A DNA stretch of 4,404 nt from a virus. Lineage: Duplodnaviria > Heunggongvirae > Uroviricota > Caudoviricetes. The stretch lies in the IMG/VR virus record IMGVR_UViG_2582580934_000001, one strand, 5' to 3'. The translations under genes and the position numbers were made by a program. The notes beneath the pieces were generated by a model, which saw nothing but the letters and a program-made list of their open reading frames with translations, ran no database searches and was not told the origin of the DNA. Of the stretch, positions 2,091-4,404 are shown piece by piece (position 1 is the first letter of the stretch; every line of letters starts with the position of its first letter).

Positions 2091-3131
2091 ATGGCTACAT
2101 CGACAGTAATTCCTGATGACATCAAAACGCTAAAATCCGACGTTAGCAAATTAAAAAACGATCAAGGAAGCTACGCAACAAAATCTTATGTAGACAATAA
2201 AACAACATGGAATGGTTATTGCAATGTAATCTATGATCAAAAAACATTGCCAACAACTGGAACTATATTCAGCGGTAAGCTGCATTTGTCAAATAAGACT
2301 GGTGAAACGGAAAACGCTTATAGTGACATATATACCAGAAAAAATATTGATGGTACTAAAGATACAATGACGAGGATCGTCACACATAACGGGACAAAAG
2401 GTATCTTTTGGGACTTTAGTGATCTTTACGGAGGAACTTTAATTTTTCCAGGCAGTGATGGTTACCTTAAGATGGGGAACTGTCTCATGTCGTATGGTGT
2501 GCGGGGAAGTAACGCGCTTATTAAGTTTGATAATACAGACTCATTGCAGATCAAATATGCTAATCACGGGTCGACCATGACACTAAACACGCAAGGTACG
2601 GCGTATTCTGGTGTGTCGACGTTATTATGGGGAAATTCCAGCCGTCCTGTTGTTTATGAAGTCGGTGTTGATGGTGGCGCTTATATGTTCTATGCGCAGA
2701 AAAATACCGATAACACCTATATGTTAAGCGTTAATGGTGCATGTCATGCCACCGCATTTAACCAGCATTCCGACCGGGATCTGAAAGACAACATTCAGGT
2801 GATCGATAATGCAACCGACCGCATCCGTAAAATGAACGGCTATACATACACGCTTAAAGAAAACGGTATGCCCTATGCTGGTGTCATTGCACAGGAAGCT
2901 CTGGAAGCAATCCCAGAAGTTGTAGGTTCCGCAATGAAATATCAGGACGGTGCGAGCGGATCGGAAGGTGAAGAAGGTGAACGTTATTACACAGTAGATT
3001 ATTCTGGTGTTACTGGCTTGCTTGTTCAGGTAGCCAGAGAGTCAGACGACAGAATAACAGCACTGGAAGAAGAAAACGCAGAATTAAGACAAAGATTATC
3101 TGTAATTGAGGCGGCGCTTGCGTCTAAATAA
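2091..3131 (+). CDS. Tail fibre / tailspike-like protein (346 aa) with C-terminal intramolecular chaperone auto-processing domain (peptidase S74 type)
   Basis: ATG at 2091 with a good SD; stop TAA 3129-3131. Residues 227-346 read SDRDLKDNIQVID...RIRKMNGYTYTLKENGMPYAGVIAQEALEAIPEVV...YYTVDYSGVTGLLVQVARE...ALEEENAELRQRL, which matches the conserved pattern of the endosialidase / T5 pb1-type chaperone domain (SD-R-LK, G-IAQE-P-VV, DYS-L-V, terminal coiled coil). The N-terminal ~226 aa are AT-rich and Gly/Thr/Asn/Tyr-rich, as expected for a beta-rich receptor-binding part. Confidence 0.88.
   Translation: MATSTVIPDDIKTLKSDVSKLKNDQGSYATKSYVDNKTTWNGYCNVIYDQKTLPTTGTIFSGKLHLSNKTGETENAYSDIYTRKNIDGTKDTMTRIVTHNGTKGIFWDFSDLYGGTLIFPGSDGYLKMGNCLMSYGVRGSNALIKFDNTDSLQIKYANHGSTMTLNTQGTAYSGVSTLLWGNSSRPVVYEVGVDGGAYMFYAQKNTDNTYMLSVNGACHATAFNQHSDRDLKDNIQVIDNATDRIRKMNGYTYTLKENGMPYAGVIAQEALEAIPEVVGSAMKYQDGASGSEGEEGERYYTVDYSGVTGLLVQVARESDDRITALEEENAELRQRLSVIEAALASK
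2769..3128 (+). other. Domain: intramolecular chaperone / autoproteolytic C-terminal domain; predicted cleavage Ser codon at 2769-2771 (Ser227 of the 2091 ORF)
   Basis: HSDRDLKDN motif; the Ser in the SD-R-LK context is the established self-cleavage residue in characterised S74 domains. Assignment is by motif recall, not by search. Confidence 0.7.
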
Positions 3132-3137
3132 TATTAA

Positions 3138-3160
3138 GGGGCCGAGCGCCCCGTTTTATT
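3138..3160 (+). terminator. Rho-independent terminator ending the fibre gene cluster
   Basis: GGGGC (3138-3142), loop CGAGC, GCCCC (3148-3152), followed by GTTTTATT (3153-3160), 7 nt after the stop of the 2091 ORF. Confidence 0.7.
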
Positions 3161-3173
3161 GGGTAGGATGAAA

Positions 3174-3467
3174 ATGGATATAACACCTTTCCTTCATGCG
3201 CTTTGTGCTGTGGCTGCGCAGCTACTGATTGGTCTTTTTACCGGGAACTGGGCTTACGGGGCGATAGCCGGTTGTACGTTCTTCATTGCGCGTGAACACA
3301 CCCAGGCAGAATATCGCTGGATCGAAATGTTCGGGCATGGCAAGCGAATGAATATGCCGTGGTGGGGCGGTTTTGATACACGTGCATGGGATGTGGCAAG
3401 CCTGATGGATTTTGCTGTGCCGGTGGTGGCGTGTCTGCTGGTCTGGCTGTTGGTTAATCGTGGGTGA
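3174..3467 (+). CDS. Hypothetical small membrane protein (~97 aa from ATG 3174; in-frame alternative starts at ATG 3168 and TTG 3159), two predicted hydrophobic helices
   Basis: AGGA at 3165-3168 lies 5 nt before the ATG at 3174; stop TGA 3465-3467. Hydrophobic stretches FLHALCAVAAQLLIGLFTGNWAYGAIAGCTFFIA and ASLMDFAVPVVACLLVWLLV. GC is about 55%, unlike the AT-rich genes upstream. No family recognised. Confidence 0.5.
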   Translation: MDITPFLHALCAVAAQLLIGLFTGNWAYGAIAGCTFFIAREHTQAEYRWIEMFGHGKRMNMPWWGGFDTRAWDVASLMDFAVPVVACLLVWLLVNRG

Positions 3468-3477
3468 AAAAAGGTGA

Positions 3478-3606
3478 GCTGTATATGCAACGGAGGAAGA
3501 AACCCCGTTGCTGGAAGCCTGGAAAAAGTATCGGATGCTGCTGAACCGTGTTGATACATCAACTGCACCTGATATTGAGTGGCCTACGAACCCTGTCAGG
3601 GAGTAA
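3478..3606 (+). pseudogene. tfa: Fossil 3' end of a tail fibre assembly (Tfa) gene; only ~42 C-terminal codons remain and there is no start codon
   Basis: Frame 1 between TGA 3475-3477 and TAA 3604-3606 translates [42 protein letters not shown]. As I recall it, the phage lambda Tfa C-terminus is ...[36 protein letters not shown], a near match. Upstream frames are closed, and the unrelated 3174..3467 ORF sits in another frame. Confidence 0.75.
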
Positions 3607-3669
3607 TCATTGGGATTATGCCGCAGAACGTCTTAAGTAATCATTGGGATTATGCCGCAGAAACGTTGT
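3602..3669. repeat. Tandem direct duplication, 2 x 34 bp (first 27 nt identical), starting inside the tfa stop codon
   Basis: 3602-3635 is AGTAATCATTGGGATTATGCCGCAGAACGTCTTA and 3636-3669 is AGTAATCATTGGGATTATGCCGCAGAAACGTTGT. Confidence 0.85.
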
Positions 3670-3688
3670 ATGCAATAACGTTCTGCGG
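3655..3688. repeat. Inverted repeat / hairpin: 12-bp stem with one bulged A and a 9-nt loop; no following T-tract
   Basis: CCGCAGAAACGTT (3655-3667) pairs with AACGTTCTGCGG (3677-3688). The copy-1 sequence CCGCAGAACGT (3621-3631) is perfectly complementary to 3678-3688, giving an alternative pairing partner. A second 7-bp hairpin lies at 3696-3715 (ATGCACT / AGTGCAT). Confidence 0.6.
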
Positions 3689-3852
3689 TTGGCTGATGCA
3701 CTTTCGAGAGTGCATGTATTGAATTATTTCCAGCTATTATCGATTTTACGTATTTTTTGCATGAGAGAATTTGTACCTCCTCCCAACAACGACCTTCCAT
3801 GACTTTCCGGACTTCTGTGGGCCAGCGGACGATGCTGCCCTCGGATGTTGTG

Positions 3853-4404
3853 CTAATTGGGTGATGACAAATCCTGTGTATGGGTGTTTCCCTTTGTGCG
3901 TGCGTTGATGCTGGTAACGGTGAACGTCATGATGAACACAACCGCGAATAAGACGACAATCGTCGGAGCTGGTGCACTGTCGATAAAAAAGGACAACCAG
4001 ACACCAGTCATTGACACTATTACCGATATGCCAATCGCCAGTAGGAGCGCAATATGAAAGCGTTGTGTCAGGAGTACCGCAATGGCGCCAGGCGCAATGA
4101 GCAGAGAAATGGAGAGAATGATACCTACCGCTTTCAGCGTCGCCACAATGGTCAGAGAGACCATGCACAGCAGCCCATAATGCAGACATCTCGTATGCAA
4201 ACCGCTTACCTGCGCCTGTTGATAATCAAAGCTGAACAGCAAAAAATCCCGCCATTTTACGCTAATAACAAGTGTAACCAGCCCGGCAATAATCACCGTC
4301 TGGATTATATCGCCGATGGTTACCCCGAGCATGTCGCCGAAAAGAATATGGTCAAGATGTACGTCTGGTTTGACTGCAATATACAAGATCAGACCTGCGG
4401 CAAA
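3853..4404 (-). CDS. sitD: ABC-3 family divalent-metal (Mn/Fe) ABC transporter permease, SitD-like; 3' portion only, N-terminus lies beyond the window edge
   Basis: Minus-strand frame is open from nt 4404 down to stop TAG at 3855-3853. Translation ...LFGDMLGVTIGDIIQTVIIAGLVTLVISVKWRDFLLFSFDYQQAQVSGL...AVGIILSISLLIAPGAIAVLLTQRFH...FIDSAPAPTIVVLFAVVFIM aligns with the ZnuB/MntB/SitCD permease pattern (LFGDLLAV...LSxTISPDLAxxxG...xVGxLLxxSLLIxPAAxA...SGPxIVL). The sitD name is contextual (last permease of an operon next to prophage genes) and the symbol is less certain than the family. Confidence 0.8.
   Translation of the reverse strand, partial: FAAGLILYIAVKPDVHLDHILFGDMLGVTIGDIIQTVIIAGLVTLVISVKWRDFLLFSFDYQQAQVSGLHTRCLHYGLLCMVSLTIVATLKAVGIILSISLLIAPGAIAVLLTQRFHIALLLAIGISVIVSMTGVWLSFFIDSAPAPTIVVLFAVVFIMTFTVTSINARTKGNTHTQDLSSPN

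Follow-up and report, generated by a model that had tools for sequence, protein, structure and literature searches.

The stretch of DNA analysed here (the window) comprises 4,404 nucleotides of a tailed phage (Caudoviricetes; IMG/VR record IMGVR_UViG_2582580934_000001) and comes from an E. coli lambdoid prophage, whose tail module it covers at the right end, next to sitD. Our subject is a small open reading frame (ORF) at 3174-3467, which an earlier note, made from the sequence alone, had picked out as a two-helix membrane protein and candidate prophage cargo. We found that this ORF is a genuine gene for an integral membrane protein of 97 residues, and that its relatives are carried directly behind the receptor-binding genes of very different phages. 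We propose tentatively that the protein serves to exclude further phage from the cell that makes it. The features of the window, from left to right, are as follows.

Ending at 1800: the 3′ part of a side-tail-fibre gene (PHROG 1419).
1800-2081: an acidic 93-residue protein (PHROG 1361, function unknown, without a Pfam match).
2091..3131, + strand: a 346-residue tail fibre with a C-terminal Peptidase_S74 (S74) intramolecular-chaperone domain (Pfam E-value 6.3e-14; PHROG 4563), immediately 5′ of the target ORF.
3138..3160, + strand: the hairpin GGGGC-CGAGC-GCCCC (3138-3152) followed by GTTTTATT, located by consensus scan, a terminator-like end to the S74 fibre gene.
3165..3168, + strand: a Shine-Dalgarno (SD) sequence, AGGA, read from the sequence 5 nt 5′ of the ATG at 3174.
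3174..3467, + strand: the target coding sequence, 97 residues plus stop, ATG to TGA (PHROG 1443; WP_000355602.1).
3487/3508-3606, + strand: a 3′ fossil of a tail-fibre-assembly (tfa) gene encoding the last 28 residues (Caudo_TAP positions 103-130 of 131, E-value 1.5e-13), a pseudogene in RefSeq.
3853..4404, − strand: the 3′ part of sitD, at the same junction as the sitABCD cargo of phage 21.

In phage 21 the gene order is stf, a 92-residue gene, the target gene (gp24) and sitDCBA; sitABCD, which encodes a Mn/Fe transporter, is phage 21 cargo (locus L002, 6386-9835). The tfa fossil that lies between the target gene and sitD in the window, and which the Caudo_TAP match confirms as the earlier note had read it, has no counterpart in phage 21. 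A functional tie to sitABCD was considered and rejected because sit genes are missing from the neighbourhood of most homologues. The 27-nt sequence AGTAATCATTGGGATTATGCCGCAGAA occurs as a perfect direct repeat at 3602-3628 and 3636-3662, flanking the end of the tfa fossil, and its second copy runs into a hairpin of 15-16 bp, CCGCAGAAACGTTGTATGCAATAACGTTCTGCGG (3653-3690; z = -2.9); repeat and hairpin together (3602-3690) could be either the scar of a junction or a terminator, placed between the end of the prophage and sitD. On the other side of the target gene, the 93-residue PHROG 1361 protein keeps its place behind the side tail fibre, with the S74 fibre or else the target gene next in line, in phage 21, in E. 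ruysiae and in an SSU5-like plasmid, and is possibly a fibre adaptor or chaperone.

Several lines of evidence establish that the target ORF is a real coding gene under purifying selection. RefSeq places WP_000355602.1 at identical coordinates on the + strand, and the hidden Markov model of PHROG 1443 matches the protein over its full length (residues 1-96 against profile positions 1-96 of 97, E-value 2.8e-58). The ratio of nonsynonymous to synonymous substitution (dN/dS) is 0.15-0.19 against E. coli relatives, and the core of the protein is kept where synonymous sites are saturated. DNA homology to phages 21, Gally and 611R6 starts exactly at the ATG, the upstream DNA being unrelated. We place the start at 3174 because the alternative, an ATG at 3168, coincides in part with the SD and has no counterpart in phage 21 or Gally. 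The resulting in-frame ATG-AAA-ATG (Met-Lys-Met, 3168-3176) resembles the dual-start motif of lambda S, but an antiholin-style arrangement of this kind was rejected, since the spacing from the SD suits only the start at 3174 and the upstream ATG is missing from those two phages; the resemblance is probably a coincidence. An antisense ORF (3254-3568, − strand) was likewise rejected, as conservation, dN/dS and the boundaries of homology all suit the + frame.

The family to which the protein belongs is already catalogued, as PHROG 1443 and as thousands of records of a 'hypothetical protein', but no catalogue gives it a role. The PHROG annotation is "unknown function"; the orthologue in phage 21, gp24, which is 95% identical to the target protein, is a 'putative membrane protein'; and the UniRef name 'Ybl63' is the only name that any source gives to the target protein. 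Homologues fall into 453 clusters at 90% identity and 426 at 50% identity, and all are stand-alone proteins of 60-146 residues. Scans of the target protein against Pfam, NCBIfam and PADLOC gave no match, and when 53 family members were scanned against Pfam, with its models for Imm_superinfect, SieB and YebO, no hit rose above threshold. A sub-threshold match to the N-terminal region of PhoR (E-value 0.066; 3 of the 53 members, best 0.0035) was judged to reflect composition, namely a transmembrane (TM) hairpin followed by a charged stretch, and was set aside. A sequence profile search of the PDB found no relative, and Foldseek searches of BFVD and the PDB returned nothing with an E-value below 0.7. 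Literature searches (WP_000355602, phrog_1443, ybl63) found no paper naming the gene or its family, and the gene is not discussed in the phage 21 genome announcement or in the Hf4s and Chi-lambdoid papers. Homology to a known housekeeping membrane protein, which would have told against the idea of cargo, was therefore not found in Pfam, NCBIfam or the PDB, and as far as sequence comparison can tell the family is unrelated to any characterised exclusion, conversion or holin family.

That the product is a small integral membrane protein, as first supposed, is supported by three confidently predicted helices and a hydropathy profile that matches them. An AlphaFold2 model built from a 28-sequence alignment (predicted local distance difference test score, pLDDT, 91.8) has helices at residues 4-23, 26-53 and 74-96, and for this reason the two-helix label of the earlier note is probably wrong. 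TMHMM, however, as quoted in the GenBank record of phage 21, gives two transmembrane domains (TMDs) with both the N- and the C-terminus inside, so the number of TM segments is itself a prediction. Residues 4-39 form a single hydrophobic stretch of 36 residues, best read as a tight TM1/TM2 hairpin, and residues 74-95 a third TM segment. Column conservation picks out two stripes of small or polar residues at i+4 spacing within or just beyond the hairpin (H8-A12-Q16-G20-G24 and G29-G33-F37-E41), which suggests tight packing of the helices. The protein can be divided along the gene into three parts.

Residues 4-39 (3183..3290, + strand): hydrophobic helical hairpin, made up of helix 4-23, a turn at G24-N25 and the first half of helix 26-53.
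Residues 40-73 (3291..3392, + strand): conserved core and loop, R40-E41-H-T-Q44-A45-E46-Y-R-W-I and then G.GKR.NMPWWGGFD.R.W72.
Residues 74-96 (3393..3461, + strand): third helix and TM segment with conserved D79 and P83, encoded by the variable, mosaic 3′ third of the gene.

Conservation is concentrated in a few polar and aromatic positions. Across 53 relatives whose overall identity is only about 32%, R40, E41 and W72 never vary and H8, Q44, A45, E46 and P83 are at least 90% conserved; the family motif reads G-R-E-x-[AT]-Q-A-E-Y-R-W-I, then G-x-R-x-x-M-P-W-W-G-G-F-D-x-R-x-W. In the model, the conserved residues H8, R40, E41, Q44, E46, W72, D79 and P83 are predicted to cluster at one depth, at the membrane boundary. 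Family-wide, the 40-73 loop carries 5.2 lysine or arginine residues per sequence, compared to about 0.45 at each terminus, and the positive-inside rule would then put the loop, and with it the N-terminus and the conserved polar cluster, on the cytoplasmic side. The conserved residues would then probably form a polar and aromatic cap at the cytoplasmic face of the membrane. There is no charged C-terminal tail: the target protein ends N-R-G directly after helix 3, with 0-6 residues following the last helix, and the tails of the family average 3.7 residues and 0.43 lysines or arginines. A lipoprotein reading was rejected because the lipobox [LVI][ASTVI][GAS]C is absent; the sequence H-A-L-C11 does not fit it, and C11 is replaced by I, V or L in relatives.

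The gene is common and its host range is broad. Of 5426 complete E. coli genomes, 1900 (about 35%) carry it, the median being 2 copies and the maximum 7, and the annotation is in every case 'hypothetical protein'; it is also found in 72 phage records and in phage-plasmids. A scan with the family alignment across species-representative genomes located related loci in Escherichia, Leclercia, Pantoea, Aeromonas, Comamonas, Acidovorax, Pigmentiphaga, Chelativorans, Sphingomonas, Halomonas and Desulfovibrio; the gene is present in alpha-, beta-, gamma- and delta-proteobacteria. With the exceptions described below, the target directly follows the receptor-binding gene whatever the tail type of the phage, and it moves together with receptor-binding modules, as a single piece at their 3′ end. 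The contexts are these.

Lambdoid siphoviruses: downstream of Stf or S74 fibres.
Comamonas prophage: downstream of gpJ and then a 72-residue gene.
P22-like podoviruses (Gally, 611R6): downstream of the tailspike and just before int, which is the conversion locus.
P2-like phiHAP-1: between tfa and the sheath gene, a slot equivalent to that of P2 Z/fun.
HP1-like Aeromonas prophages: downstream of the fibre gene, whose stop is overlapped by the start of the target gene.
Enterobacter/Leclercia-type prophages: downstream of a tailspike with a pectate-lyase-like, GDSL-lipase or S74 domain.
Two phages with diversity-generating retroelements (DGRs): between an Mtd-like gene and bAvd.

The two DGR insertions are in prophages of Comamonas nitrativorans and Pigmentiphaga humi (L036 and L038, 6836-8691), and in 611R6 the target gene adjoins an OafA-type O-acetylase. 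A specific tie to S74 fibres was rejected, since many of these contexts are without S74. In the Enterobacter-type prophages the target is the last cistron of the fibre operon, because the next unit is a separate umuD/C-like moron under LexA-box control. In this SOS-controlled moron (L060, about 6330-6350; L062, 6683-8184) a perfect LexA box, TACTGTATAAATACACAGTA, precedes a pair of genes for proteins of 79 and 105 (UmuD-like) residues, to which L062 adds a UmuC/IMS polymerase. A mosaic breakpoint falls inside the target gene itself: over codons ~18-50 its DNA is nearly identical to that of Gally (L006, 4001-4288), and the 3′ third is strongly diverged, which suggests that the conserved core acts as a recombination anchor for the swapping of receptor-binding cassettes.

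The exceptions to this placement are informative. In a P1-like plasmid the gene lies among ead/eaa accessory genes, near hot, humD and phd-doc. In four Aeromonas genomes (A. aquatica, two of A. media and A. taiwanensis; L015, L017, L019 and L024, around 8001-8320) a stand-alone copy sits between a pirin gene on one side and, on the other, a convergent RIO1 kinase gene, two genes for lipid A acyltransferases and one for SLAC1. The surroundings of these lone copies are free of phage genes, and the chromosomal gene looks like a domestication. Jumbo phages of Aeromonas, with intact copies, are a further exception. Finally, HC6-like phages (HC6, L057, 2969-3162; ST1UNAM, PBM-2 and PBM-3) carry only an unannotated relic, frameshifted and interrupted by stops, which in HC6 lies directly 3′ of an intact gene for an S74-type fibre of 859 residues; since these phages keep no more than the relic, the gene is dispensable for plaque formation. 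Taken together, the contexts and exceptions imply that the protein is not a component of the virion or of fibre assembly and works without phage partners.

The label of cargo is accordingly supported: this is an autonomous, dispensable gene that moves between phages behind unrelated receptor-binding proteins, persists alone in Aeromonas and has decayed in HC6. Two features expected of a moron are present. The gene is inserted where the fibre module gives way to sitDCBA or int, whatever the fibre type, and is decayed in the HC6 relatives; and its base composition differs from that of the flanking phage genes, its guanine-plus-cytosine (GC) content being 53.4%, compared to 41.5% for the 93-residue gene, 41.7% for the S74 fibre and 48% for the tfa fossil. 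The earlier note had described a gene of normal GC (about 55%) between an AT-rich fibre module and the tfa fossil, and that contrast holds, although at 53.4% rather than the value quoted. A third feature, a promoter and terminator of the gene's own, was not found.

What, then, does the protein do? We favour, tentatively and as one possibility among several, an autonomous inner-membrane accessory factor that acts on a conserved host membrane process and in doing so excludes further phage. The conserved cap, facing the cytoplasm, would act on a conserved process of the host inner membrane, and the infected or lysogenic cell would then resist further phage attack, either by a block to entry after adsorption or through an altered envelope or glycan pathway. 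We chose this explanation because it best fits the position of the gene, its autonomy and its persistence in chromosomes. Known conversion and exclusion genes occupy such positions, among them cor, gtr/oac of P22 and Z/fun of P2.

Several observations weigh against exclusion. The first concern expression. The earlier note had the gene following a terminator and possessing its own SD; the AGGA is indeed there, but the hairpin at 3138-3152 is weak and unremarkable (stem 5 bp, loop 5 nt, -10.8 kcal/mol, z = -0.6 against shuffles), and a scan of the + strand from 2900 to 3900 gave no sigma-70-like promoter, so that independent expression is not supported in the window. The same hairpin, with a 3′ remnant of the fibre gene, also precedes the target gene in vB_EcoP-611R6. 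In about half of the 53 loci the start lies inside a same-strand upstream ORF or no more than 45 nt beyond its end, and in many the gap to the upstream late gene is only 10-18 nt or there is an overlap. Such tight coupling to the fibre gene points to late co-transcription rather than to expression from the prophage, and in most phages the gene is probably expressed late, by read-through with the fibre genes. In favour of exclusion, Gally alone has a moron-like layout, with a strong terminator and then an AT-rich spacer of 190 bp before the gene; promoter-like matches there do not surpass those in shuffles, and in the P22-like phages the gene is possibly an independent unit. Also against exclusion, intact copies are found in virulent-looking jumbo phages of Aeromonas. 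Last, known exclusion proteins usually have a narrow distribution and evolve fast, and a core that hardly changes between Escherichia, Comamonas and Sphingomonas is explained no less well by an enzyme or ligand site, or by a partner that is itself very conserved.

This last point leads to an alternative, albeit an unlikely one. Here the protein would be a minimal membrane enzyme, an ion or metal site, or a regulator that alters a lipid-linked envelope precursor or an inner-membrane machine, and the outcome would be serotype conversion or a late shut-off of glycan export rather than a plug against entry. The conserved H8, R40, E41, Q44, E46, D79, W72 and P83, predicted to lie at a single depth at the membrane boundary, are what such a site might look like, although they are equally explicable as an internal network that locks the helices together. 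The receptor-binding proteins upstream are mostly glycan-directed (P22-type tailspikes, pectate-lyase-like proteins, GDSL esterases and S74 fibres), and in 611R6 the gene shares its conversion locus with the OafA-type O-acetylase. The two lipid A acyltransferase genes near the Aeromonas chromosomal copies point the same way, but they are convergent and the RIO kinase gene lies in between, such that the linkage may be coincidence. Moreover, no similarity to any enzyme family or solved fold was detected, and 97 residues would be very small for a catalyst. A bolder version, in which the three-helix module with its invariant His, Arg, Glu, Gln, Asp and Trp residues would hold a true active or ligand site, strikes us as distinctly improbable. 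The candidates would then include an enzyme of very small size, a site that binds a metal or an ion, and a specific inhibitor of some inner-membrane machine universal among proteobacteria, such as a complex for lipid-linked glycans, lipopolysaccharide export or energy transduction. Phages of every tail type would make use of the module alongside their receptor-binding proteins, and Aeromonas would have domesticated it.

The main rival is a holin-like or lysis-timing protein (a holin, antiholin or accessory factor) made late, together with the tail fibres. About 97 residues with some three predicted TM segments would suit such a protein, as would its place as the last gene of a late fibre operon in most loci, for which T4 t and T7 gp17.5, directly after fibre genes, offer a precedent. 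In Comamonas prophages the gene leads by start/stop overlap into genes for two multi-TM proteins, a PHROG 3108 protein and a spanin-like protein, and in Aeromonas phage 62AhydR11PP it follows genes for a PHROG 3108 protein and a Gly-zipper membrane protein; these assignments of lysis functions to neighbours are, however, our own reading and were not confirmed by any library match. One of the 53 members weakly matches Phage_holin_8 (E-value 0.0036), but this is sub-threshold, no holin family was matched at threshold and the PHROG label remains that of unknown function. Of the properties expected of a holin, the protein is small with at least one TMD, but the charged C-terminal domain is lacking. 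An adjacent endolysin gene is not seen in the window, in phage 21 or in most loci; only three loci (L004, L007 and L028) place the gene beside PHROG 3108. Phage 21 has its full S21/R21/Rz cassette elsewhere (PMC12315714). No lysin gene lies near the lone chromosomal copy of Aeromonas, an E. coli genome can tolerate as many as 7 copies, and the loop is conserved far beyond what is usual in holins. On balance we regard a role in lysis as improbable, to a slightly greater degree than that of a minimal enzyme, ion site or regulator. As an observation in its own right, the PHROG 3108 proteins, annotated 'unknown function' (L004, 2499-2996; L007, 8970-9521; L028, 8973-9524), share the motif GLQESR...F(W/L)QFE, which we read as lytic-transglycosylase-like, and are probably unannotated endolysins beside multi-TM and spanin-like ORFs.

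A factor for the assembly or maturation of tail fibres or tailspikes, occupying the 'tfa slot', is close to excluded: the gene does lie immediately 3′ of receptor-binding genes in most phage loci, often with translational coupling, but its product is integral to the membrane, and the fibres and spikes that precede it are unrelated in type, some having their own S74 chaperone. The gene also occurs away from fibres in the P1-like plasmid and by itself in the chromosomes of Aeromonas, and in HC6 it has decayed although the fibre gene before it is intact.

Nothing mechanistically surprising has emerged about the protein as yet. Its prevalence is nevertheless striking for a family without a domain assignment, a structural relative or a literature, given that it is present in about 35% of complete E. 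coli genomes, in the classical phage 21 and in at least four proteobacterial classes. Its near-invariant core, its fixed place behind receptor-binding genes and the lone copy in Aeromonas are likewise unusual for a small phage membrane protein. If the proposed role in exclusion or envelope change is correct, the gene would help to determine susceptibility to phages in very many strains and would have been overlooked in that role, with relevance to the prediction of host range in phage therapy. If instead it is a factor of lysis or late infection, it would add a widespread player to late phage development.

Comparison with known systems helps to define where the family stands. HK97 gp15, T4 Imm and P22 SieA are inner-membrane superinfection-exclusion proteins that block DNA entry. 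The target resembles them in being a small phage inner-membrane protein that is accessory to virion production, and the gene for HK97 gp15 also lies inside the tail gene cluster. Unlike T4 Imm, SieB and HK97 gp15/YebO, it has no Pfam match, either itself or in the 53 members, and no PADLOC match, and its family is wider and more tightly conserved. With Cor (of lambdoid phages, N15 and phi80) and T5 Llp it shares the position of an accessory gene beside a receptor-binding gene; those proteins are outer-membrane lipoproteins, whereas the target is without a lipobox and has three hydrophobic helices. Like the P22-type cargo gtrABC and oac, it is membrane-embedded and encoded at the locus between tailspike and int (in Gally and 611R6), and D3 Iap, a small polymerase inhibitor, belongs to the same comparison group; in contrast to the conversion proteins, neither the target nor any of the 53 members has a GtrA or Acyl_transf_3 domain. 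Class I holins such as lambda S105, together with T4 t and T7 gp17.5, are matched in size (about 100 residues), in three predicted TM segments, in a place in the late operon after fibre genes and, at three loci, in putative lysis genes as neighbours. The family departs from holins in having neither a charged C-terminal domain nor a holin-family match, in its strongly conserved loop and in its survival as a lone chromosomal gene. PHROG 1443, phage 21 gp24 and 'Ybl63' are the same family, present in the catalogues as entries without a function.
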